Assembly (NCBI GenBank): GCA_963834795.1
Contig: CAWIDL010000021.1
Span: 29,938 to 93,937 of the forward strand
Source: an uncultured delta proteobacterium
GTDB lineage: Bacteria > Desulfobacterota > Desulfobaccia > Desulfobaccales > 0-14-0-80-60-11
DNA: 64,000 nt
Reading direction: 5' to 3'
Shown: one piece after another, positions 12,795 through 52,362 of the stretch
Layout: every line of letters begins with the position of its first letter
Position numbering within the stretch: the first letter of the stretch is position 1
The notes under the pieces: model-generated
The model's input: only the letters and a program-made list of their open reading frames with translations
What the model was told of the DNA's origin: nothing
The model's database searches: none
Made by a program: the position numbers and the translations under genes

Positions 12795-14060
12795 ATGGTG
12801 AAAAATCTCTCTCCCATACAATCATACGGTCCCGATTGGGAAAAACATCTACCGGTGGTGCCCCAAATCCAGGTAACTCGGAACTGCAACCTGGCGTGCG
12901 GGTATTGCTTCCAGGAGCATTCCGGGGGTATTATCGGCCTCTCGACGGTTGAGACGATTCTACGCCGCGTCATCGCCCATAATCTGACCATTGATCCTCT
13001 CACCAAGGTAATTCAGATCTACTGGCACGGCGGTGAGCCCCTCCTGGCGGGCCTCGATTTTTTTCGCGCCATCATCGGCTTCGAGGCTCAGTATCCCGAG
13101 CTTTCTTTTGAAAACCGGATTCAGACCAACGGGACCCTCATGAGCGATGATATGGCTCGATTGCTCGCCGAATATCAATTTCAGGTGGGCTTCAGCCTCG
13201 ATGGGCCCAAGGAGATTCACGATCGGTACCGGTGTTTTCACGGGTCGCGGTCCGGATCTTTTGATGCCGCCCTGCGCGGCATTGAATGTTACCGTGGTCG
13301 CGCCATGGTAGACCGCGTGGCAGTGATTGCCGTGGTTACCCGGGCGAGCATCGACCACGCTTTCGACCTGTTTGAATTCTTCAAGGCCTTGAGAGCAGAG
13401 GTCCAGCTGGATATCTATGATGTGCGCTGGCTGGACCTGATTTCGGAGGCCGGCGAGGTTGCAGGGTTGTCAGACCTTGCCCCTCTGCCGGAAGAAGTGG
13501 GACGGTTTCTGATCGAATTGTTTGATCTTTGGTTCTGGGACCAGGAGAGGCAGGTGGATTTCAAAGAGTTGCGGCAAGAACTCAAGATGGTCCTGCAGCC
13601 GGAAATCGATCGGGGCGACCCATTCCACAAGAAACGGTGCGACTTCCGGCGCCTTATTTTCGCCCCCAATGGCAGGGTGTTCAGCTGTGACCAGTGGGTG
13701 AATGATGAGAAGACGGCCCTGGGAGATATCCACCAGGATTCCCTGGCGGCCATTTTGACGAACAAGGGCGTCCTGTGGGAAAAGATTAAGCAGAGGATTC
13801 GGCGGTCCGGGAAATATATGGCCTGTGGAGGCTGTGAATGGGGCCGGCAGTGTGGCGGCGGGTGTTTCACCTGCATGAAATACAACGCGATGCTGCTCCG
13901 CGCCCGGTCAGAGGGACTGCCTGACAACCGCTGGGCCGACGCCGTCCTCCCTCCCGCTTGGGATGAGGTCCGCGGGGAGACGTACTTCTGTGAGGGGCTG
14001 AGAGCTTTCCGTCACCACCTGCGGGAAGTCGTCCGGCGGGAGCTCGCCAATGCCGGTTGA
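12795..14060 (+). CDS. Radical SAM/SPASM protein 1 (anSME-like; putative peptide maturase)
   Basis: CNLACGYC, WHGGEPLL, QTNGTL, SLDGP..HD; C-terminal C..C and CxxC-x5-C-x3-C..C. Confidence 0.92.
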   Translation: MVKNLSPIQSYGPDWEKHLPVVPQIQVTRNCNLACGYCFQEHSGGIIGLSTVETILRRVIAHNLTIDPLTKVIQIYWHGGEPLLAGLDFFRAIIGFEAQYPELSFENRIQTNGTLMSDDMARLLAEYQFQVGFSLDGPKEIHDRYRCFHGSRSGSFDAALRGIECYRGRAMVDRVAVIAVVTRASIDHAFDLFEFFKALRAEVQLDIYDVRWLDLISEAGEVAGLSDLAPLPEEVGRFLIELFDLWFWDQERQVDFKELRQELKMVLQPEIDRGDPFHKKRCDFRRLIFAPNGRVFSCDQWVNDEKTALGDIHQDSLAAILTNKGVLWEKIKQRIRRSGKYMACGGCEWGRQCGGGCFTCMKYNAMLLRARSEGLPDNRWADAVLPPAWDEVRGETYFCEGLRAFRHHLREVVRRELANAG

Positions 14061-15159
14061 TGCCAACGACGCCTTCACCCTTATCCTGGAGCCGGTGAAG
14101 CGCTGCAATCTAAGGTGCCGATATTGCTATTCGGACGGTGCCGGGGCCGGCGTCATGAGCCGGCATACGCTGCAGACGGCCTTGGAAAAAACGGCCCGCT
14201 ATGCCGAGCGACATGGGTTCAGGGAAATCCATATCCTCTGGCATGGGGGAGAACCCCTCCTGGCGGGCCTCGGGTTCTTCAGGGACGCGATGAAAATTCT
14301 TGACGGGCTTTCCTCGGACCTGAGATTCCATCATTATCTCCAGACCAACAGCCTGCTCCTCGATTATTACTTTTGTGCCTTTTTCCATGACCACGAGTTC
14401 CAGATTGGTATTAGCCTCGACGGCCCCCAAGTCTTGCACGACTCGATGCGAATCGGTGCAGATGGGCAGGGAAGCCACGCGGCGGTTTTGGAGAAAGTTC
14501 GCCTTTTGGAAGAACAGGGCGTGTCAGCGGGGTTCAACGCGGTCGTTATCCGGCGGAGCCTGGGTCAGGAGAAGGCAATCTACCGGTACTTTCAGGGCCT
14601 AGGGTACGGTTTCCGCGTTAACCCGATGGTTCCGGGGCGCAACCCAGAGACCTCTGCACCATACTTGCTTCAGCCAGGGGAATATGGCTCATTTCTTTGC
14701 CGCTTATTCGACGAATGGGCCAGTACGGATGGCCAGCGGGTCACAGTGTCGCCTCTGGACCTTTACCTGGAGGCAATTCTTGGTGGTGTGCCTTACGAAT
14801 GTCAGCAGCAAGGCACCTGTGCCGGGTCGCACCTCGGAGTGAAACCCTCTGGGGATGCCGTGCTGTGCAGCCGGTTTGAGACCCACCCCTTAGGGAATAT
14901 CCACGACAGTGAAATCCAGGAATTGGTAGCTTTACCTTTTTGCGAAGATATTCGCCGGCGCGCAGAGACGCTTTCATCCTGCCACACCTGTATGTACTGG
15001 TCAATCTGCCACGGCGGGTGCCCCCTCAACGCCTTGGTGTTTTGTCATGACCATATGGCAAAGGACCCTTTCTGCAAAGATTATCAGCTCATATTTGCAA
15101 GAATCCATCGAGCTCTGGCAGCTCTGCAAAGAAAGTCCCAAGCCTACCCAGAGCCATGA
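14050..15159 (+). CDS. Radical SAM/SPASM protein 2 (anSME-like; putative peptide maturase)
   Basis: CNLRCRYC, WHGGEPLL, SLDGP..HD; C-x5-C..C and CxxC-x5-C-x3-C..C; overlaps the upstream gene by 11 nt. Confidence 0.92.
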   Translation: MPVDANDAFTLILEPVKRCNLRCRYCYSDGAGAGVMSRHTLQTALEKTARYAERHGFREIHILWHGGEPLLAGLGFFRDAMKILDGLSSDLRFHHYLQTNSLLLDYYFCAFFHDHEFQIGISLDGPQVLHDSMRIGADGQGSHAAVLEKVRLLEEQGVSAGFNAVVIRRSLGQEKAIYRYFQGLGYGFRVNPMVPGRNPETSAPYLLQPGEYGSFLCRLFDEWASTDGQRVTVSPLDLYLEAILGGVPYECQQQGTCAGSHLGVKPSGDAVLCSRFETHPLGNIHDSEIQELVALPFCEDIRRRAETLSSCHTCMYWSICHGGCPLNALVFCHDHMAKDPFCKDYQLIFARIHRALAALQRKSQAYPEP

Positions 15160-16835
15160 GACCCTGGATTACTGGCATCATCTCACGCTACCGCTTCCCT
15201 CTGACGCTATTAGTTTTCGTGCAGCTCGGCTGCGGGGTGCTCATCGCGCTGCAGCCGCGCTACTATCAACAGCTGGTAAGCCTTGCCATCAATGGCCAAT
15301 ACGCCAATCTTTGGACCTCGGGGCTGCCCTTGCTCCAGCAACTGACCCTTATCTTCCTTGCCATCGCAGTGCTGCAAGGGATTAGCGGGTATATTGGCAC
15401 CGTCTTTTCTTTCAACCTGCTCAAGCAGCTTCAAACCGATTTTTTCGATAAGGCAAGCCACCTGCCCTTGACCTATTTCCAGAAGCAATCCGCCGGCGAA
15501 TTTTTCACCAAGTTCTCCAGCGATATTGCGCAAGCCCAGCGGTTCTTCGCTGATTTTCTTCCAGGGGTCGGGCGCGAACTCATCACCGCGATGGCGGTGA
15601 CGGTCGTCCTCTTCTATTTCTGCCCAGCCTCGCTTACCATGGCGGCCCTTGGCATCGTGGGCATCACCGCGATCCTCGTGACCGTCCTCAACCGAATTAT
15701 GGGTGTTTATGCGAGGGCTCAGCGGGCCACGTGGAGCGAAATACAGCGGGTCTTCGACGAAACAATTCAGGGAATCGACACAGTCAAGGTACTGGCTGCC
15801 GAGGGGCAGCAAGCAGCACATTTCCAGAGGCACACCACCGGACTGAAGAAGCTTTCTGTGCGAGCCGGGGCGGTGCTCTCGGTGTTTTCCCCCGGTATTG
15901 AGCTTCTCACCCAACTGGGCGGCTTAGGGTTGGTGGCCATGGCCTATTACCTGATCGCCAGAGGTAAGTTGCGTCTCGATCCTTTTTTGCTTTTTTTCTT
16001 TTACGCCAGCCTATTGCAGATGTCGGTCACCCAACTCACCAGGTTGGTGGCCAACGTGCAGACCGAATTCACCGGGATTCAACATCTGGCCGGATTTCTA
16101 GCTGAAGCCCCTGAGGCAGAAGATAGCCACCCCACGGTAACTCTGCCAAGCCAATCCGTCGCCATCGAGTTATCCAGTCTGACATTCGGTTACCCGGGAG
16201 GGCGGCGGCTCTACAACCGGGCGCACCTGCTTATTCCAGGAAATTCCGTCACCGTCATTGGTGGCGAAAGTGGAAGCGGTAAATCCACTCTCATCAATTT
16301 GCTCCTACGCCTTTATGCACCCGAGGAAGGAGTCATCTCCATCGGCGGGATCGACATCCGGCGGATTTCACGCACTGAGCTTCGGAGGAAAGTTGGGGTT
16401 GTCACCCAAAATCACTTTATTTTCCAGGAGACGCTGAGAGACAACCTCCTCATCGCTCAGCCGGACGCGAGTGACCGACAGATTTTGCAGGCCCTTGAAC
16501 GCGCCCAGTTAAAGGACTTTTTGGCGCGTTTGCCTCAGGGCATTGAAACAGTAATGGACCCGCGTGGCATAGGTGCTAGCACCGGTGAGAGGCAGCGGAT
16601 TTGCATTGCCAGGCTGCTATTGAGAGAGTCGCCGATCATGATTCTAGATGAACCATGGTCAAACCTCGACGACAGGGCACGCAAACTCCTTGCCGAGGTC
16701 ATCAACGCTTGCAAAAGTACCGCAACCATTTTAATTCTAACCCATGAGCGCCATCCGGCACTCGCCGTTGATCGACTGTACCATTTAGACGGGGCCCAAG
16801 GGATCTTAATCCAAGAGGACCCTGCTGCAGCCTAA
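15156..16835 (+). CDS. ABC exporter, fused permease/ATPase, no C39 peptidase domain
   Basis: N-terminal TM domain, Walker A GESGSGKST, Walker B ILDEP, H-loop; ATGA overlap with rSAM 2. Confidence 0.93.
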   Translation: MRPWITGIISRYRFPLTLLVFVQLGCGVLIALQPRYYQQLVSLAINGQYANLWTSGLPLLQQLTLIFLAIAVLQGISGYIGTVFSFNLLKQLQTDFFDKASHLPLTYFQKQSAGEFFTKFSSDIAQAQRFFADFLPGVGRELITAMAVTVVLFYFCPASLTMAALGIVGITAILVTVLNRIMGVYARAQRATWSEIQRVFDETIQGIDTVKVLAAEGQQAAHFQRHTTGLKKLSVRAGAVLSVFSPGIELLTQLGGLGLVAMAYYLIARGKLRLDPFLLFFFYASLLQMSVTQLTRLVANVQTEFTGIQHLAGFLAEAPEAEDSHPTVTLPSQSVAIELSSLTFGYPGGRRLYNRAHLLIPGNSVTVIGGESGSGKSTLINLLLRLYAPEEGVISIGGIDIRRISRTELRRKVGVVTQNHFIFQETLRDNLLIAQPDASDRQILQALERAQLKDFLARLPQGIETVMDPRGIGASTGERQRICIARLLLRESPIMILDEPWSNLDDRARKLLAEVINACKSTATILILTHERHPALAVDRLYHLDGAQGILIQEDPAAA

Positions 16836-42595: not shown

Positions 42596-42630
42596 TTAAA
42601 AAACCCCTTGAATTATCAAGGGGTTTTAAT
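42596..42630 (-). terminator. Hairpin terminator downstream of tRNA-Asn
   Basis: AAAACCCCTTGA-ATTA-TCAAGGGGTTTT inverted repeat flanked by A/T runs. Confidence 0.75.
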
Positions 42631-42635
42631 TTTTC

Positions 42636-42711
42636 TGGCTCCCCGGGACGGACTCGAACCGCCGACCAAGTGGTTAACAGCCACCCGCTCTACCAGCTGA
42701 GCTACCGGGGA
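42636..42711 (-). tRNA. tRNA-Asn (GTT)
   Basis: TCCCCGG..TAGCTCAG, anticodon loop CTGTTAA, GGTTCGAGTCC, CCA end. Confidence 0.97.
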
Positions 42712-42725
42712 GTGATGTCTGCTGC

Positions 42726-42799
42726 TGGCTGGGGGACCAGGATTCGAACCTGGATAGGCAGATCCAGAGTCTGCAGTCCTGCCGTTAGACGATCCCCCA
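42726..42799 (-). tRNA. tRNA-Gln (CTG)
   Basis: TGGGGGA.., anticodon arm GCAGA-CTCTGGA-TCTGC, GGTTCGAATCC, CCA end. Confidence 0.96.
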
Positions 42800-42816
42800 G
42801 TGGATGAGTCCCATTT

Positions 42817-42845
42817 TTTATATGAAGTTGGCGGGGGTTTGTCAA
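42817..42845 (-). promoter_or_regulatory. Sigma70 promoter of the tRNA pair
   Basis: TTGACA-N17-TATAAA on the minus strand. Confidence 0.8.
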
Positions 42846-43024
42846 GAAGCCCATCCGCATCCGGATTATCCCTAGCTCGGTTTAGCCTGGCGGTTTCCAT
42901 CCCAAGGCAGTTGCAGTCAGGGCGGCAGCCTGCCAGGATCGCGGCTTACCCGGAAAAAAAACGGAATGGCCAACCATCTTCAACCGGGCGCTGTTTCCGA
43001 TAGATGCAGGGTCTGAGGGCCATG

Positions 43025-44002
43025 CTAATCCAACCCCCCTGTTGCCTGGCAGGGGACGCAAGCCTGCTGCCATCGGCGCTTCACCCTGAGCAGGGCTCGC
43101 AGGCGCGTATCCTGCGCGCGGAGGTCTTCCGGCTGCTCCAGGCGTCGGGCGATCTCCTCTTCGATCTCACAGGCGGCCTCACACTTTACTGCGACGAGGA
43201 TGTCCTCGATATCTTTCCGCAGGCGCCATGAGTTCGAAGACAGACACCCGATCACCCGGTGTGCCATCAGCCTTCGGTCCTCTCCCGAAGCGAACCTTAT
43301 CCCCAGCTTCGAAGCTTCTATGACGAGCACCGCATCCGGCTCATAGAGCAGACCGCGCAAGGTTTGCCAATGGGCCGCGGAAATTTCAATACCGGCCAAA
43401 AGTTGGACCGCACTCCGTCGGCGTTTCATACTGCCCGGAGTCTCCATGGTCGAACTTGGACTGGGAGTCACTACTGAACGCGACAAGGCCTCGCAAGCCA
43501 TGGGGCCCAGCTTCAGGAAAGCATTTTCTGCCGCGGATCGGTAAAAGTCGTCCTCAAGGGCGCGCTCGAAATAAGGGATGGCCTCCAAGGCCTTGAATTC
43601 CGCCAGGGCATCAATCAGGCCATTGAGCAGGCCATGTTCTGAGAGCTTCAGGAGTAATTGGTATATATCTTCATCCCGCCAGGCCGCGAGGAACCGGGCG
43701 GCGGCGCTTTCCACCGCCTCTTCGCCAAAGCGCTCCTCCGGGTCGGCAATTTCTTTTTCCCGGAACAGGTAGGCGATCAGAACCTCCCTGGCCCCCAGGC
43801 GGGCCAGTGCCTTCACCGCCCCCAGGCGGGGCTGGAATACCTTGCTGGGCTTGCCTTCCAGCAGAAAATCGCTTAATGGCCCAATAGCTACCGGACCCAA
43901 TCCCACCAGGAATTCAACCGCTTCCTCTCCGCTACATAAAGATTCCAACTTGCGGATGAGGCGGTGAACCTCGTCGAGCGGAGTTGCCATACCTTCTTCC
44001 AT
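43025..44002 (-). CDS. HEAT/PBS-repeat-like helical protein
   Basis: Repeated A...L..LG..A..L helical units; follows eno on the same strand. Confidence 0.7.
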   Translation of the reverse strand: MEEGMATPLDEVHRLIRKLESLCSGEEAVEFLVGLGPVAIGPLSDFLLEGKPSKVFQPRLGAVKALARLGAREVLIAYLFREKEIADPEERFGEEAVESAAARFLAAWRDEDIYQLLLKLSEHGLLNGLIDALAEFKALEAIPYFERALEDDFYRSAAENAFLKLGPMACEALSRSVVTPSPSSTMETPGSMKRRRSAVQLLAGIEISAAHWQTLRGLLYEPDAVLVIEASKLGIRFASGEDRRLMAHRVIGCLSSNSWRLRKDIEDILVAVKCEAACEIEEEIARRLEQPEDLRAQDTRLRALLRVKRRWQQACVPCQATGGLD

Positions 44003-44085: not shown

Positions 44086-45366
44086 TCAACTCTTCTGCAA
44101 TGGGTTGGCAAAAATGGCCGCGCCTCCCAGTTCCACCTCAATCTCCAGCAGCCGGTTATACTTGGCGATGCGCTCGCTGCGGCACACCGAACCGGTCTTG
44201 AGTTGGCCCCCGCCCATGGCTACGGCGAAGTCGGCGATAAAGGGGTCTTCCGTCTCCCCGGATCGATGGGAAATAACGAAGCCCCAGCCTGCCTGCCGGC
44301 ATAGATGGATGGCCTCCATGGTCTCGGTGACGGTGCCGATCTGGTTGAGCTTGATGAGTACGGCGTTGGTGGATTTTTCGGCGATCCCCCGGGCGATGAA
44401 CCGAGTGTTGGTCACGTAGTTGTCATCCCCCACGATTTGGATCCGATCCCCGAGAGCCGCGGTAAGCTCTTTGAACCCCTGCCAGTCATTTTCCGCCAGG
44501 CCGTCTTCGATGGAAACGATGGGGTATTTTCCAACCCAGACTTCATAAAGGTTAACCATCTCGGCGCTGATCTTCTGTCCCTGCTTGGATTTGCTGAGGT
44601 TATAGACCCCTTCCTCGTAGAAGGAACTGGCCGCGGGGTCCAGGGCGATGGCCAGGTCCTTGCCCGGCTGGTATCCCGCGGCGGAGATACCCTCCAGAAT
44701 CACCTCGCAAGCTTCCTCATTGCTCTGGAGATCAGGGGCGAACCCGCCTTCGTCGCCCACGTTGGTGGCATAGCCCTTTTTCTTGAGAATGGCCTTCAAG
44801 CTATGAAAGGTCTCGGAGCAGTACCGCAGAGCTTCAGTGAAAGTTGGAGCCCCGATGGGCACAATCATAAATTCCTGGAAGTCGATGCTGTTGTCGGCGT
44901 GCTTGCCGCCGTTGATCACGTTCATCTGGGGCATGGGTAAGCGTCCGGCTCCAGGGCCTCCCAGATATTGATAGAGTGGCAACCGGGCGGAGATAGCCGC
45001 GGCCCGGGCCACCGCCATGGACACCCCCAAGATGGCATTGGCCCCCAGGTTGCCTTTATTGGGGGTGCCGTCCAGGTCGATCATGAGGCGGTCGATTTCA
45101 CCCTGGCGAACGGGGTCATGGCCGACGAGATGAGAAGCGATGACCGTGTTGACGTTGTCCACGGCTTGCAGCACGCCCTTGCCGCCATAGCGTTTCTTGT
45201 CCCCATCCCGCAACTCCACGGCTTCGTTCTCGCCGGTGGAGGCGCCGGATGGCACAGACGCGGTGGCAGTGATCCCGCGGTCCAGGGTTACATAAGCCCG
45301 CAGTGTCGGGTTGCCCCGGGAATCCAGGATTTCCAGGGCCCGGACGGACACGATTTTATCACTCAT
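44086..45366 (-). CDS. eno: Enolase
   Basis: [51 protein letters not shown]. Confidence 0.98.
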
Positions 45367-45529
45367 GCTTGCTCCTTTCTTTGTTCAGAGGATAGGCGGA
45401 CGCGGGTCCGCCCGGCAGTAGAACCTCACGTTTGCTCTCAAACCTCCTTTAACTGGGATGGGCGCTTCCATCCGCATAACTCAAGATAAGTCCACCTTTT
45501 TGATTCCGCCAGGAGCGAAATGCAGGCAG

Positions 45530-45733
45530 TTAAAGAATGTCGGGCGGGACAAACTCCTTGCCGCCGATGGCGGCCCTGTCTTCGGGCTCTTCCACCTTGG
45601 CCTCATCCCGCACCCTTTTGGCGATGCGGCGCCGGGTAATGGCTTCGGTTTCAGCGGCCTTGAAGCCCTGGGTGGCGTCCTGGGTAGCTATTTCATGGGG
45701 AATAGCTGACCCCGGGTCCAAGTCCGGGATCAT
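45530..45733 (-). CDS. Small hypothetical ORF or gene remnant
   Basis: Coding-like composition between two same-strand genes; frame stays open upstream of the ATG; no recognisable motif. Confidence 0.35.
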   Translation of the reverse strand: MIPDLDPGSAIPHEIATQDATQGFKAAETEAITRRRIAKRVRDEAKVEEPEDRAAIGGKEFVPPDIL

Positions 45734-45782: not shown

Positions 45783-46229
45783 TCAGCCTGAAGAGCCTGC
45801 TTTGGTCAGTAAGGCCTTGAGGTGATCTAAATATTGGAGGATTCGATAGGCCTTGGGGTCCAGGTAATTAACCAATTCCGGCGCTGGTTCGCCAAAACCT
45901 CTTAGATATTTGCCGGTCATTTCCATGACGTCCACCCAGAGAATATAACAGTGCCCCTGTATGGTTTTGGTTATGTCCTGAGAACTTTCCTTAAGGTGCA
46001 GATCATCTTTTAGTTCCTGGATGATGCCACGGATGGCGGCAATATCGGCTAGTAATAAGGCACGCCTTTCGGGATCAAGGTTATTGGTTTCATGGTAAAG
46101 GATGGAGTGCACTTCCCGCCCCTGGGCCCACTCCTCGAATTTAACCAGGGCCTCATCGAGAAGGGTGAGCGTTATCCTGATTCTGCTGTGGTGTGCCTCA
46201 CTAAGGTTTGGAATAGATCCTACCGGCAT
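45783..46229 (-). CDS. Hypothetical helical protein, first gene under the left fluoride riboswitch
   Basis: L.E.H..RI..TL..LD, YLRGFGE motif; start set at MPVG (46229). Confidence 0.75.
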   Translation of the reverse strand: MPVGSIPNLSEAHHSRIRITLTLLDEALVKFEEWAQGREVHSILYHETNNLDPERRALLLADIAAIRGIIQELKDDLHLKESSQDITKTIQGHCYILWVDVMEMTGKYLRGFGEPAPELVNYLDPKAYRILQYLDHLKALLTKAGSSG

Positions 46230-46449
46230 TATGCAGACATCCTTGCAGCCCTTTGCATCATTGCGGGGCCTCATAACTTAAATCATCCGCTGAATTAACA
46301 CTGTAAGATTATATTTAATGTAATTCAAGTCATCGTGGTCATGGCTTTTTCGCCTCTTATCAAAGGCATTCTCACCCGTTTAAAGGACAGTGCGGCGTGC
46401 CAGACTTGTCCACTATGGTCCTCCCGAAACCGGTGCAGCCGCAGCCCAT

Positions 46450-46490
46450 AAAAAAAAGCTCCTGATCTCACCAAAGGTGAAATCAGGAGC
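46450..46490 (-). terminator. Intrinsic terminator of the left fluoride riboswitch
   Basis: GCTCCTGAT-TTCACC-TTT-GGTGAG-ATCAGGAGC then T8 on the minus strand; overlaps the aptamer 3' strand. Confidence 0.88.
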
Positions 46491-46547
46491 CATCAGTGTC
46501 ATCACATTTCGGGCAGATTATCCTCGCCCCGGCGGACTCCATCGCCC
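46484..46547 (-). ncRNA. Fluoride (crcB) riboswitch, left copy
   Basis: GGCGATGGAGTCCGCC...CTGATGGCTCCTG: P1 plus GGAGU/GCUCC pseudoknot, matching the crcB consensus. Confidence 0.88.
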
Positions 46548-46552
46548 TGGAT

Positions 46553-46581
46553 AACTTAACCCCGGTCCCCGGCTTGGTCAA
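46553..46581 (-). promoter_or_regulatory. Sigma70 promoter for the left riboswitch
   Basis: TTGACC-N17-TAAGTT, 5 nt upstream of the aptamer. Confidence 0.7.
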
Positions 46582-46620
46582 GGAAAATGTGCCATAATTC
46601 ACAAATCCTCTCTTTTAAAG

Positions 46621-46650
46621 TTGACATCAAGGCTCTTTTGGAGAAATAAT
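46621..46650 (+). promoter_or_regulatory. Sigma70 promoter for the right riboswitch
   Basis: TTGACA-N18-AATAAT. Confidence 0.65.
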
Positions 46651-46661
46651 TTAAGCTACGA

Positions 46662-46717
46662 GGGCGATGAAGTCCGCCTTAATTGTTCGCGGTGGCCCGT
46701 GGGCTGATGACTTCTGC
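46662..46717 (+). ncRNA. Fluoride (crcB) riboswitch, right copy
   Basis: GGCGATGAAGTCCGCC-TTAA...GCTGATGACTTCTGC with GAAGUC/GACUUC pseudoknot. Confidence 0.9.
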
Positions 46718-46744
46718 TCATTTTAAGGGGCAGAAGTTTTTTTT
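46710..46744 (+). terminator. Intrinsic terminator of the right fluoride riboswitch
   Basis: ACTTCTGC...GCAGAAGT followed by a T run; sequesters the pseudoknot strand. Confidence 0.88.
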
Positions 46745-46767
46745 GCCCCTCATAACCGGGAGAAGTT

Positions 46768-48522
46768 ATGGGAGTTTACCGGGAACTGAAAGAAGACCTG
46801 GAAGGGGAGCTGCGCCGACTGGCCGCGCTACCTGAAGTGAGGGAGCCGCGCCTGGCGCAGCTGCTGGACAAGTTGCGGGAAAACCGCTTCAATCTGGTGA
46901 TCCTGGGCGCCTTTAAACGGGGGAAAAGCACCCTGATCAACGCCTTGATGGGTGAGGCCGTGCTGCCCACGTCCATCATCCCCCTCACTTCGGTGGTTAC
47001 CATCCTGGGTTACGGCGAACGCCTGGAGATCCTCGTCCATTTTCAAAACGGCCAACGCACCGTTATTACCCAGGGGGAATTGGCGGCTTATATCACCGAG
47101 AAGGGCAATCCCAGGAACCATAAAGGGGTGCGGGAGGTGGAGATCGCCTATCCCTCAGATTATCTCCGGGACGGGGTGCGCATCATCGACACCCCGGGGG
47201 TGGGCTCGGTCTATAGTCACAACTCTGAAGTCGCTTATAATTATCTCCCCCAGGTGGACGCCGCCGTCTTCGTGGTTACCGTGGACCCGCCCCTGTCCGC
47301 CGCTGAAGAGGATTTCTTGAAGGATATCCGGGAATATGCCCACAAGCTATTCTTCGTTCTGAATAAGATCGACTATGTGGCTGAGGCTGAGCGGCAAGAG
47401 GCCCTGGACTTTACCGCGGAGGTCCTGCGCGGCAACCTGGCAGGCCAAAGGCTGATGATCTTTCCGCTCTCCGCCAAGCTGGGCCTGGAAGGCAAGGCCA
47501 ATGGCGGCTCCGCAATGTTGACTGCCAGTCTCCTCCCCCAATTTGAAGATTACCTGCGCCGGTTTCTTTATCAGGAAAAGGGCCGGGTATTGCTGATTTC
47601 CTGTATCAACGGGGCCCTGAAAGCCCTGAATGACTCCACCCTGGCCCTCAAGGTGGAACGCCAGGCCGGCGCCATCCCTCTGAAAGAGCTGGAGGAGAAA
47701 ATCGCCCGCTTCAACCAGGAATTGCAGGGACTGGAGAAGGAACGGGAGATGTCCCTCTTCCTGTTGGATGGGCGAGTCAAAGGGCTATTGGAGGAGTTGA
47801 ACCGCGACCTGGAAGCCTTTAAGCGGGAAACCGACGCCCAGCTGCGCCGGGAAGTGGAGGCCGAGTTCCACCGGAAAAGCCGCCTGGCCCTCGACCTGCG
47901 GAAGGAGATGGAAGGATACCTGTTCGCGGCGTTGCGGGATGTCTTCCTGGATTGGCGGCGCCGCGAAGTTGAGAAACTGGCGCTGTCGCTGGCCGACACC
48001 CAGCAGGAGTTCGCCGCCCGGATTAACGGCATCCTGGAGCGCCTGACGCAATTGACCGCCCGGATCTTTGACTTTTCCCTGCGGGGTTTCGCGGCGGAGG
48101 AAACCTTCACTGAAAAGAGCCACTTCGGGTTCAAATTTAAAGAAGAACCGGTGGGCCTGGAAATCCTGCAAATGACCGTGGCTTCCTTGCTCCCCCGGGC
48201 CCTTACCACGGGCCTGCTGCTCAAAAAGCTTCTGGAAAACGTGGCTGAATTGGTGGATAAGCATTGCGGCCGCCTGCGTTACGATTTCCAGCAGCGACTC
48301 CAGGAATTGACCCGGGATTTTCGGAAAGACTGGCTCTCCAGGATCGATGACACCACCCAAAGCATTCGTCAGGCGCTGGAGCGGGCCAGGGCTCTGAAGC
48401 AGAGCAGCGCCCAGGCGGCGGCGCGGCGGGCCGGAGAAATGGAGCAAAGATTAACCGAAATCTCCCGGGGTGAAGGCACTTTATTGGAATTGAAGGCCCG
48501 GGTTGAAAAGTCCCTACCCTGA
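46768..48522 (+). CDS. Bacterial dynamin-like GTPase
   Basis: G1 GAFKRGKST, G2 P.T, G3 DTPG, G4 NKID, SAK; long helical C-terminal stalk. Confidence 0.92.
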   Translation: MGVYRELKEDLEGELRRLAALPEVREPRLAQLLDKLRENRFNLVILGAFKRGKSTLINALMGEAVLPTSIIPLTSVVTILGYGERLEILVHFQNGQRTVITQGELAAYITEKGNPRNHKGVREVEIAYPSDYLRDGVRIIDTPGVGSVYSHNSEVAYNYLPQVDAAVFVVTVDPPLSAAEEDFLKDIREYAHKLFFVLNKIDYVAEAERQEALDFTAEVLRGNLAGQRLMIFPLSAKLGLEGKANGGSAMLTASLLPQFEDYLRRFLYQEKGRVLLISCINGALKALNDSTLALKVERQAGAIPLKELEEKIARFNQELQGLEKEREMSLFLLDGRVKGLLEELNRDLEAFKRETDAQLRREVEAEFHRKSRLALDLRKEMEGYLFAALRDVFLDWRRREVEKLALSLADTQQEFAARINGILERLTQLTARIFDFSLRGFAAEETFTEKSHFGFKFKEEPVGLEILQMTVASLLPRALTTGLLLKKLLENVAELVDKHCGRLRYDFQQRLQELTRDFRKDWLSRIDDTTQSIRQALERARALKQSSAQAAARRAGEMEQRLTEISRGEGTLLELKARVEKSLP

Positions 48523-48633: not shown

Positions 48634-48915
48634 ATGAAAGACTTTGAAGAAATCATCCGGCAGCAGAAGCTCCCCGAAGTAGGGCAGGTGGTGCGCAGCA
48701 GGAAATACGGCACCAAATGGCGCGTCATGGAGAAGAAAGAGGTTTGGCAGAACGTCGACCCCGACCCCAAAACCGGGGAGTCCCGCATGATCCCGGCCGT
48801 CTATCTCAATTTCTGGAGGGTCCAGGAAGGGGTCATGCCGGGGGTGGGCAGGATGATGGGGTTTCTGTACACCCTTTACGACAACACCTTCGAACTCAAC
48901 TGGGAACTCACCTGA
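48634..48915 (+). CDS. Hypothetical protein
   Basis: GGAGGTGA RBS, host-like codon usage. Confidence 0.75.
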   Translation: MKDFEEIIRQQKLPEVGQVVRSRKYGTKWRVMEKKEVWQNVDPDPKTGESRMIPAVYLNFWRVQEGVMPGVGRMMGFLYTLYDNTFELNWELT

Positions 48916-50619: not shown

Positions 50620-52097
50620 CTACGAGCCTCCCTGGCCGTTTTTGATGCGCTGGATGAGGTTCGAGACCGATACGGGTTCGGTGACCGGGAGGAGCCGGAC
50701 CTCCCCGCCGTAGGCCTGGACGATCTCCCGCCCGGCCACCTGGGCCTCCGGGTAATTGCTCCCCTTGGTAAGGATGTCCGGTTTGAGGCCGGCCAGGATT
50801 TCCGGCAGCCGGGAGCTTTCAAACAGGGTGACGTAGTCTACGGCTTCCAGGGCCGCCAGGATGCGCAAGCGTTGAGCTTCGCCGATGACCGGGCGGCCCT
50901 CCCCTTTCACCAGACGCACCGAGGCGTCGCTGTCCAGGGCCACCACCAGGAGGTCTCCCAGGCGCCGGGAATCCTCCAGGAACTTGATGTGGCCGGCGTG
51001 GAGCAGGTCGAAGCAGCCGTTGGTGAAGACCACCTTCCGACCCTGGGCCTGGAGATGGGACACCTTGAGGCCCAATTCGGCCAACCCCAGGATCTTATCC
51101 TCCGGCCGGCGGACCGGCGTCCCAGCTCCCGCTCCAGCTCCGCCCGGAAGATGGGGGCGGTGCCCACCTTGCCCACCACCACGCCGGCGGCGATGTTGGC
51201 CACGGTGGCGGCCAGCACAGGACTGCCCCAGCAGGCCAGCCCCAGGGCTACGACCGCGGCCACCGTGTCCCCGGCCCCGGAGACGTCGAAGACCTCCTGG
51301 GCCCGGGTGGGGATGTGCAGCTCTGGGCCTTGCCGGGGGAAGAGGAGCATGCCCTCGGCCCCCAGGGTAATCAGCAGATGGTCCAGGCCCAGGTCCTCCC
51401 GGAGTCCGGCCCCGGTCCGGACCAGTTCCTCCCAGCGGGACAGGGAGTGGCCGGCGGCCAGTTCCGCTTCCTTGCGGTTAGGGGTGATGACCGTGGCCCC
51501 GGCGTAACTGGAGAAATCCGGCCCCTTGGGGTCCACCACCACTGGCACCCCCTGACTGCGCCCCCGTCTGATGACCTCCTGCAGCAATGGGGCGGTGAGG
51601 GCCCCCTTGGCGTAATCGGACAGGACGATGGCGGAGAGCCGGGGCAGGCGGTCCTGGAGAAAGCTGGCGGCCGCCGCCAGGAAATCCGGGCCGGCCAGGC
51701 TGCGGGATTCCCGGTCGATGCGCACCACCTGCTGGGTGTTGCCCATGACCCGGGTCTTGCGGGAGGTACGCCGCTGCGGGTCGGCGAAGAGGCCGGCGTC
51801 GTCCACTCCCAGCCGACTAAGCTCCCGGCGCAACAGGCTGCCGGGATGGTCGTCGCCCACCAATCCCAGGACTTCCGCCTGGGCCCCCAGGGCCACCAGG
51901 TTGTTGACCACGTTGCCGGCGCCACCCAGGGTGCGGGTTTCCCGCTCCACGTCCACCACCGCCACCGGCGCCTCCGGGGAGATGCGCGAAACCCGCCCCC
52001 AGAGGTACTCATCCAGCATGAAATCCCCGGCCACCAGGACCCGCAGGGCGGAGAAGCCGGAGAGGTCCAGGCGCCGCAACTCCTCCCCGATACCCAA
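50620..52097 (-). pseudogene. hldE: Bifunctional heptose 7-P kinase / heptose 1-P adenylyltransferase, split by a frameshift near 51100-51120
   Basis: Kinase (GD.MLD, RISPEAP, GGA.NV, SDYAKG, TPN, DVSGAGD) and transferase (FTNGCFDLLHAGH) lie in different frames. Confidence 0.85.
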
Positions 52098-52362
52098 ATC
52101 TTCGCTACCGCCGCCTGACTTGCTCCGGAACACTGCCGGCTCCGCTCCTTGCTTCGTAATATATGGCCCAAGCAGGCCGTAGGTCAAGATGCAGGATAGA
52201 TAATCCTATTTGGGTAGCCGCAGGCTTTAGCCTGCGCTTACGCAGGCGAGACGCCTGCGCCACCGAAAACCGAACGTTCCCAAGCGGGAGTTTGGGAACG
52301 AGAAACCGAAATGCCAAACCTGGCCGGACACTACTGCGGGTATTCCCCCGGGAACGCCTGGC

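Follow-up and report, generated by a model that had tools for sequence, protein, structure and literature searches.

Two divergent fluoride riboswitches between a dynamin-like GTPase operon and a second enolase gene in a delta proteobacterium without recognisable fluoride exporter genes

Fluoride riboswitches are usually taken as signposts to fluoride exporters. A short intergenic region in a 64,000-nt stretch of DNA from an uncultured delta proteobacterium (contig CAWIDL010000021.1, positions 29,938–93,937; hereafter, the window) poses a question to this view: which genes could two such RNAs, lying back to back on opposite strands, control in a genome with no recognisable exporter gene? An earlier note, made from the sequence alone, had proposed two divergent fluoride riboswitches here, and both strands do match the Rfam fluoride model RF01734 (gathering score, 34 bits), with the organisation of transcriptional ON switches. 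The host assembly, called G000, is from a sediment bacterium and comprises 3.43 Mb in 32 contigs, with 97.5 % completeness. The covariance-model search covered a 601-nt locus, the entire G000 assembly and related genomes, and the genome comparison set contained 41 related genomes of the order Desulfobaccales, including G000. As developed below, the locus very likely consists of two independent divergent riboswitches, the forward one (+ strand) leading to a GTPase operon and the reverse one (- strand), most likely, to genes for a 148-aa protein, an enolase and a HEAT-like protein (Table 1).

Identity, structure and pairing of the two RNAs

The forward aptamer scored above the gathering score of RF01734 (E-value 7e-9), and the reverse aptamer fell 0.9 bit short of it (E-value 2.2e-7 in the 601-nt search and 3.0e-7 genome-wide); by the covariance-model check that the earlier note had proposed, the forward copy therefore stands outright and the reverse copy is a narrow miss. 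The motif strings that it had quoted for both aptamers are present in the sequence. The third-best match in the 3.43-Mb assembly had only 18.6 bits, leaving two good matches in the whole genome. The weak matches L003 and L004 (18.6 and 16.3 bits) are inside long reading frames, L004 being also devoid of the tail motif, and were discarded as chance matches. Likewise, a regular-expression search for half-riboswitches at the ends of G000 contigs returned hundreds of chance matches and was dropped, the covariance-model search being preferred. Separately, a 13-nt word with one mismatch to the riboswitch tail motif occurs in at least 12 copies across G000 contigs, and may be part of a dispersed repeat.

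Both RNAs fold into the architecture of the class. In the forward aptamer, P1 pairs positions 46663–46666 with 46675–46678, P2 spans ca. 46685–46704 with 8 bp, and the pseudoknot pairs 46669–46673 with 46710–46714 (GAAGU/ACUUC). In the reverse aptamer, P1 pairs 46546–46543 with 46534–46531, followed by an extra hairpin (46529–46511) and a P2 of 3 bp (46505–46496), with the pseudoknot formed by 46540–46536 and 46490–46486 (GGAGU/GCUCC). We examined these pairings in an alignment of 58 aptamers (57 distinct) from the window and from loci of relatives, using 500 shuffles and slid pairings as controls. Among the distinct aptamers, P1 and the pseudoknot were paired in 99.2 % of cases (98.2 % for P1 and 100 % for the pseudoknot), with 28 doubly changed cells; the covariation score was reached by none of the 500 shuffles, and the slid controls paired only in 38–57 % of cases. 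The pseudoknot pair that differs between the two window copies was AU in 34 aptamers, GC in 20 and GU in three, and was never unpaired. The compensatory difference remarked on in the earlier note (GGAG/CUCC versus GAAG/CUUC) is thus real, and belongs to a covariation seen throughout the family. The AAAU linker of the reverse copy, which is AACC or AACU in most relatives, was considered as a sign of decay and rejected, as in class I orthologues the same position is taken by U, G, C or A.

The orthologous switches are associated with genes for CrcB, Na+/H+ exchanger, USP, MutS-like and NuoH-like proteins, H+-pyrophosphatase (H+-PPase) and FTHFS, and an enolase gene is found downstream of the reverse copy. 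The idea that both elements resemble the fluoride motif by chance only, which has nothing in its favour besides the sub-threshold score of the reverse copy, is refuted by their E-values, the distance to the next genome match, the covarying orthologues and the terminators in register, and we give it practically no weight. These RNAs are members of a known riboswitch class and, judged by their identity, almost certainly fluoride riboswitches.

The earlier note also attributed to each copy a sigma70-like promoter and a terminator overlapping the pseudoknot strand. The terminators are as described in both copies, with the 3′ strand of the pseudoknot contained in the 5′ arm of the terminator; in the reverse copy the stem is followed by a run of eight U residues. 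The promoter claim is borne out for the forward copy, whose TTGACA box is kept in eight of the nine aligned congeners, and only in part for the reverse copy, for which two boxes (TTGACC, 46581–46576, and TAAGTT, 46558–46553) score below the threshold of the scanner, the -35 box being kept in eight of nine congeners as well. These divergent promoters would be back to back, ca. 40 nt apart. A terminator overlapping the motif is the layout of ON switches in this class, according to the accessible part of Weinberg 2010 (PMC2864571), and the arrangement of P1, P2, pseudoknot and overlapping terminator is shared with the Bacillus cereus crcB leader as far as described there and in the accessible part of PMC8752731. 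It differs from known crcB leaders in that the switches are head to head, one of them has a linker hairpin and a 3-bp P2, neither precedes an exporter gene and the main cargo is a dynamin-like GTPase. We consider it highly probable that the two elements have the layout of independent termination ON switches. In such a mechanism, the 3′ tail would pair into a strong terminator in the absence of fluoride, ending transcription; fluoride, which this class binds as a Mg-F complex, would keep the tail paired to the P1 loop in the pseudoknot and let the polymerase continue. The forward switch would then turn on the genes for the GTPase, the 93-aa protein Orf93, a phosphoglycerate-mutase-like phosphatase and perhaps a BCAM0308-family protein, and the reverse switch would allow read-through of a scarred leader into the 148-aa gene, the second enolase gene and the HEAT-like gene. 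If both acted in this way, the region would form the bidirectional fluoride-inducible locus that the earlier note envisaged.

Table 1. Features of the riboswitch locus, with coordinates in the window.
Feature	Coordinates	Strand	Basis and remarks
Forward fluoride riboswitch aptamer, class I	46654..46723	+	RF01734, 37.8 bits; fold, pair counts, alignment of 18 orthologues
Forward switch promoter, TTGACA-18-AATAAT	46621..46650	+	Promoter scan, 11/12 matches
Forward switch intrinsic terminator	46709..46746	+	Stem 46709–46738, then T run; -22.8 kcal/mol, z -5.2
Dynamin-like GTPase, 584 aa	46768..48522	+	Pfam Dynamin_N, 96.2 bits (cut-off 27); starts 21 nt past the switch
orf93, orphan 93-aa protein	48634..48915	+	No Pfam or NCBIfam family
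Histidine-phosphatase/phosphoglycerate-mutase-like protein, 211 aa	49011..49646	+	Pfam His_Phos_1, 216 bits
BCAM0308-family protein, 4 Cys, 173 aa	49998..50519	+	NCBIfam NF040826, 128 bits (cut-off 100)
Reverse fluoride riboswitch aptamer, class II	46477..46555	-	RF01734, 33.1 bits; fold, hairpin covariation
Reverse switch candidate promoter, TTGACC-17-TAAGTT	46553..46581	-	Read by eye, 8/12 matches
Reverse switch intrinsic terminator	46449..46491	-	16-bp stem 46491–46457, then T8; -27.5 kcal/mol, z -7.6
Inverted scrap of the 5′ end of a NuoH/HycD-like gene (ca. codons 13–41), 84 nt	46304..46387	+	Homology to G012 and G008
Orphan 148-aa protein	45783..46229	-	163-aa ORF possible from 46274
67-codon frame, uncertain status	45530..45733	-	92–94 % conserved in two strain variants; no family
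Second enolase, 426 aa	44086..45366	-	Pfam and TIGR01060; 60 % identical to the copy in contig C4
325-aa protein, weak HEAT_2 match	43025..44002	-	Travels with the enolase gene in G012, G009 and L268

The aptamers of the alignment fall into two classes. Class I, with the GAAG/CUUC pseudoknot and a long P2, includes the forward copy and all 18 of its GTPase-side orthologues. Class II, to which the reverse copy belongs, shows GGAG/CUCC, an extra hairpin of 18–20 nt inserted after P1 and ahead of the A-rich linker, and a P2 shortened to ca. 3 bp. Across 20 distinct members of class II, pairing was kept in 91 % of cases for the extra hairpin, with double changes in three of the four counted pairs, and in 92 % for the short P2, nine sequences showing a UA/CG exchange; the four helices together were 95 % paired, with six doubly changed pairs, a result matched by none of 500 shuffles. 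RF01734 aligns the extra hairpin of the reverse copy as an insertion of 18 nt, next to the shortened P2, and its missing 0.9 bit is thus attributable to a trait of the subclass and not to decay. Orthologous class II copies in G014, G007 and G013 scored 34.7–38.4 bits, and the aligned members of the class 31–39 bits. A pattern scan of metagenome contigs found this form in at least 120 contigs; the 95 distinct inserts among the matches listed had a mean folding energy of -10.1 kcal/mol, against -3.8 for shuffles.

Among the same listed matches, 112 class II switches were followed by at least 200 nt of sequence, and the first recognisable gene behind them was that for a Na+/H+ exchanger in 69, a NuoH-like protein in 11, USP in seven, Orf93 in seven and other products in seven, the remaining 11 having no labelled gene. 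This suggests that the class II subclass normally heads a Na+/H+ exchanger gene or an operon similar to those for formate hydrogen lyase (FHL). We found no published description of a linker-hairpin subclass tied to Na+/H+ exchangers, the published consensus drawings being outside this comparison. A divergent cluster of fluoride riboswitches that is also under the Rfam cut-off is reported in the accessible part of a 2026 preprint (10.64898/2026.10.21.760802). Its members have at most 28.9 bits and precede crcB, whereas the aligned class II members have 31–39 bits and the class is mostly found before Na+/H+ exchanger genes, a separation that is based on scores and gene context.

Back-to-back pairs are the rule in Desulfobaccales. 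RF01734 matches occurred in 30 of the 41 genomes, G000 included, and 56 of the 85 matches were arranged as 28 divergent pairs, with 72–121 nt between partners, in 22 genomes; this count rests on reading match coordinates, and two pairs of G031, at the starts of two contigs, may be one filed twice. We found no published description of head-to-head pairing as a conserved architecture.

The dynamin-like GTPase operon

The gene immediately behind the forward switch codes for a dynamin-like GTPase with the motifs G1 (GAFKRGKS, at residue 47), G3 (DTPG, at 141) and G4 (NKID, at 199), which are invariant in 11 orthologues whose mean column identity is 80 %. A profile search matched the GTPase to BDLP (2J68; E-value 1.7e-27), followed by the Campylobacter DLPs, IniA and SynDLP, with values up to 1.7e-11, and by the mitofusins. 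A hydropathy scan showed no transmembrane-like segment in the GTPase or in any other protein encoded behind either switch.

For the second gene, orf93, there are 192 homologues. Pfam domains are lacking in all 120 of those listed, and any that bear a name are annotated as hypothetical. It is often the first gene behind the fluoride riboswitches of relatives. In a distant Deltaproteobacteria metagenome locus (L124, 4633–6105), the gene following the riboswitch-led GTPase gene codes for a 490-aa protein that contains a stretch similar to Orf93 with 40 % identity, indicating that this family occurs within larger proteins as well, as one of their domains. The His_Phos_1 protein gave only NCBIfam matches below their cut-offs, and its gene follows that for the GTPase in most relatives. 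The BCAM0308-family gene is also a neighbour in G014, G003 and G008; nonetheless, its membership of the operon is uncertain because it is preceded by a gap of 350 nt. No DUF6062 match was found in the five window proteins scanned (E-value up to 0.1; the GTPase at 0.01).

The association of switch and GTPase gene extends well beyond the window. All of the 21 GTPase homologues in loci of relatives were directly behind a switch, in a sample biased by having been fetched through riboswitch matches. We thus also examined loci picked by the GTPase itself, 20 close (67–82 % identity, from genomes new to the analysis) and 20 distant (35–42 % identity). An RF01734 match above the cut-off was situated directly upstream, on the same strand, in 19 of the close and 17 of the distant loci, i.e., in 36 of 40 and in several phyla; of the remaining distant loci, one had a match ca. 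1.2 kb upstream and the two without a match have less than 800 nt of upstream sequence. The distant loci were from Desulfobacteraceae, Syntrophobacterales, Bacillota, Aquificales, Actinomycetota and Desulfofundulus, and in them the GTPase gene occurs alongside genes for CrcB, enolase, an MFS protein and H+-PPase. For instance, two crcB genes are divergent from a riboswitch-GTPase-enolase-MFS unit in L131, and the cultured Desulfofundulus thermobenzoicus DSM 14055 (L141) has the order riboswitch-GTPase-riboswitch-H+-PPase. Control of the GTPase operon by the forward switch is thereby well supported by comparative data.

There is also a weak hint of expression. Contigs from RNA libraries of two studies (X16 and X17), 97–98 % alike to the window, cover 46841–47245, 47628–47806 and 48047–48181, all in the GTPase gene. 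That no such contigs lie on the switches or the enolase unit carries no information either way. Short RNA-library matches on the enolase gene (44141–44933) were rejected as expression data, being matches to a conserved gene with long unlike ends.

The reverse switch, its rearranged leader and the enolase unit

In the nearest congeners, G007 and G013 (94–95 % identity), homology to the window spans the GTPase operon and both switches and ends at 46451 or 46392, just beyond the terminator of the reverse switch, which in these genomes is followed by genes for a Na+/H+ exchanger and USP. The window leader is 86–89 % identical, from 46385 to 46480, to that of a NuoH-like gene of FHL type in G012 and G008, and 88–93 % identical, from 46385 to 46546, to leaders heading either a NuoH-like or a Na+/H+ exchanger gene. 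It is followed by a scrap that matches, with 93–94 % identity, the beginning of the gene led by the riboswitch in G012 and G008, placed in opposite orientation relative to the leader, and there is no other copy of this NuoH/HycD-like gene in G000. The NuoH-like gene that follows the partner switch in G008 spans two reading frames. The native cargo of the reverse switch has thus been lost by rearrangement in this strain. A contig of 648 nt from an independent run (X2) spans 45941–46588 without differences, indicating that the scar junction is real and not an assembly chimera.

Other strains have different junctions at the same place. The scrap is absent from L158, a strain variant, and from one contig of run X3; in both, 46385 is joined to 46303 via 8 nt, leaving the 148-aa gene directly behind the class II switch. 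In L268, the class II switch precedes the first 104 codons of the exchanger gene, the 67-codon frame, an enolase gene (97.7 % identical) and the HEAT-like gene, and is ca. 1.3 kb ahead of the enolase gene. In L225, the class II leader is joined straight to two tRNA genes (ca. 42.6–42.9 kb). These differing junctions at one leader position indicate that the riboswitch core is constant and its cargo is variable among strains, and the junction of L225 that the block from 43.0 to 46.3 kb behaves as a present-or-absent cassette. The two tRNA genes lie in the window just past the HEAT-like gene (42639–42711 and 42729–42799, - strand). L158 (ca. 1078–1425) and L268 (ca. 1283–1754) contain 350–470 nt of extra sequence just upstream of the enolase gene, relative to position 45414/45415 of the window, without any match to an Rfam family.

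The genes past the scar have their own history with riboswitches. The 148-aa protein has 114 homologues, mostly of 142–148 aa and without Pfam domains, and is a member of riboswitch-led operons in relatives; neither it, nor Orf93, nor the 67-codon frame gave Pfam (E-value up to 0.1) or NCBIfam matches. Contig C17 of G000 (42601–43317) contains a USP gene followed by a partial paralogue of the 148-aa gene (97 residues, 71 % identical), the order seen behind the class II switches of relatives, but without riboswitch or exchanger gene. G000 has two enolase genes, and the orthologues of the window copy are located in riboswitch islands, being headed by their own switch in G012 and G009; besides, enolase is a published cargo of fluoride riboswitches, as given in the accessible part of a 2024 review (PMC11139923). 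No terminator was predicted from 46449 to the enolase gene. On balance, we slightly favour that the reverse switch controls the 148-aa and enolase genes by read-through of the scarred leader, a control made plausible by the three junction forms in which switch and genes remain adjacent.

Several observations weigh against the two divergent switches acting as proposed. Besides its sub-threshold score, the reverse switch has a promoter that was seen by eye only and matches the consensus weakly, and from its terminator to the next start codon there are ca. 220 nt of rearranged leader. This scarred leader contains a perfect TATAAT (ca. 46313–46308, - strand), lacking a -35 box at 16–18 nt, and the enolase unit could hence have its own start. 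On the forward side, the RNA-library contigs are not on the switches and cannot show starts or ends. The ratios of synonymous to non-synonymous codon differences in the GTPase gene, although crude, were 24:23 against G007 and 59:44 against G008, looser than that of the enolase gene (20 synonymous to 10 non-synonymous). Lastly, in L225, in L228 and in a joint of run X3 (depth 28), 46641 is joined to 48479, with loss of the forward switch and the GTPase gene, and L225 has also lost the whole enolase block; such cargo deletions on either side in strain variants argue for weak selection.

Part of these data could mean that the reverse switch is an orphan relic, which folds but controls nothing useful, with the 148-aa and enolase genes having their own start, either within the scarred leader or beyond it. 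It would agree with the reduction of the native cargo to an inverted scrap of 84 nt behind a long leader, with the lone TATAAT, with the switch of L225 facing two tRNA genes only and with a sister switch in G008 facing a 53-codon exchanger fragment. However, there is no predicted terminator between the switch and the enolase gene, the switch stays next to the 148-aa gene or the enolase gene in three junction forms (the window, L158/X3 and L268), and all pairs of its aptamer and its terminator are intact. We consider a relic unlikely.

Absence of exporter genes and relation to known fluoride systems

The earlier note stated that the window contains no crcB or eriC gene, which is correct, and the genome search that it proposed extends this to the assembly, where no exporter gene was recognisable. 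CrcB (PF02537) had no match in G000, in a search whose control was positive in 11 of 14 named genomes, and there is no member of any kind of Na_H_Exchanger. The sole CLC protein of G000 (601 aa) has the motifs GSGGS and GKEGP at the positions of the CLC-F signatures and, beyond a CLC domain of ca. 343 residues, a long C-terminal extension that was read by eye as CBS-like. It does not contain the CLC-F signatures GNNLI/GMGLI, GREGT/V and GEVTP that are given in the accessible part of PMC11139923.

An assembly artefact, with the crcB, CLC-F or exchanger gene, perhaps together with more riboswitches, lying in the unassembled 2–3 % of the genome, could be argued from the 32 contigs and the 97.5 % completeness. 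A formate-tetrahydrofolate ligase gene in contig C2 (34489–36273), which in relatives is led by a riboswitch and orf93, has only 182 nt of contig before its start; its upstream part is unassembled, and some riboswitch-led sequence may thus be missing. Nevertheless, the closed, single-contig congener G008 also lacks CrcB and Na_H_Exchanger and has a single full-length CLC match, in the same 604-residue frame; G009 and G012 share this exporter-free pattern, and CrcB is missing in 12 of 14 congeners. Moreover, the genus shows visible decay of the exchanger linked to a riboswitch: G007, G010, G013 and G014 have it intact, G011 has a stop codon in it, G003, G005 and L268 contain fragments, and G000, G008, G009 and G012 lack it. 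An artefact is consequently quite improbable. In G008, the exchanger fragment mentioned above (L062, 12373–12531) covers 53 N-terminal codons, and has a class II riboswitch on one side and two MutS-like genes on the other.

The same losses invite the view that the whole fluoride regulon is in decay under little fluoride pressure rather than serving as a defence that works without exporters, the switches and the GTPase operon being parts not yet lost. Exporter and exchanger genes lost or broken across the genus, gene scraps behind switches, strain deletions that remove the GTPase gene with its switch as well as the enolase block, and the fairly high proportion of non-synonymous changes in the GTPase gene would all be compatible with it. 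Yet the window aptamers, terminators and GTPase motifs are all intact, the GTPase orthologues are well conserved and linked to a riboswitch across phyla as described above, and the RNA-library contigs give, if only as a weak hint, expression of the GTPase gene. We regard such a decay as possible rather than probable, and retain two independent switches with their divergent units as the preferred reading.

Two intact switches in a genome devoid of recognisable exporter genes, with a closed relative in the same situation, depart from the role of these RNAs as signposts. We found no published description of intact fluoride switches in genomes without a known exporter. The cargo shared with the published class in the relatives includes enolase, mutS-like, FHL and Na+/H+ antiporter genes (accessible part of PMC2864571). 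The cargo listed in the accessible part of the 2024 review (PMC11139923) comprises exporters, Na+/H+ antiporters, pyrophosphatase, HAD-type enzymes, enolase, formate hydrogen lyase and chorismate mutase, and no GTPase appears in that list. The FRM operon of Enterobacter cloacae, as described in the accessible part of PMC5533749, likewise places several fluoride-response genes, that for enolase among them, under a fluoride riboswitch; it also includes crcB, whereas here there are a GTPase gene and orphan genes, and no exporter gene. Strain deletions around a constant riboswitch core show how such cassettes swap or lose cargo.

The gene most tightly tied to the switch is that for the dynamin-like GTPase. 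We found no published description of such a GTPase as the most faithful cargo, and a full-text literature search retrieved no paper linking dynamins to fluoride, the gene lists of Baker et al. 2012 being outside its coverage. A dynamin-type GTPase domain is shared with Nostoc BDLP (2J68), Campylobacter DLP1/2 (5OWV), mycobacterial IniA (6J72) and SynDLP, the comparison covering this domain and its G motifs. IniA is designated as isoniazid inducible in its PDB entry, which provides a precedent for the stress induction of bacterial dynamins. We know of no link to fluoride for BDLP, the Campylobacter DLPs, IniA or SynDLP and, to our knowledge, the natural triggers of bacterial dynamins are mostly unknown. 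Were the link functional, bacterial dynamins would gain a defined inducer, and fluoride defence a branch at the level of the membrane. Tentatively, and with more doubt than conviction, the module of GTPase, Orf93 and phosphoglycerate-mutase-like phosphatase, with the nearby 148-aa and HEAT-like proteins, might be an undescribed, exporter-independent arm of the fluoride response, in which the cells would cope with fluoride by remodelling or repairing membranes and by replenishing fluoride-sensitive enzymes, instead of by ion export.

Two further regions of the window deserve mention. Past the GTPase operon, at 50620–52187 (- strand), the frame of a PfkB-type kinase (50907–52187) overlaps by ca. 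180 nt a cytidylyltransferase-like frame (50620–51084), a call made by eye, the overlapping frames being different; this looks like an hldE/rfaE-type gene that is split or frameshifted. At 12795–16835 (+ strand), genes for a radical-SAM/SPASM protein, one further ORF and a fused ABC transporter follow each other, and could be a peptide-maturation cluster.

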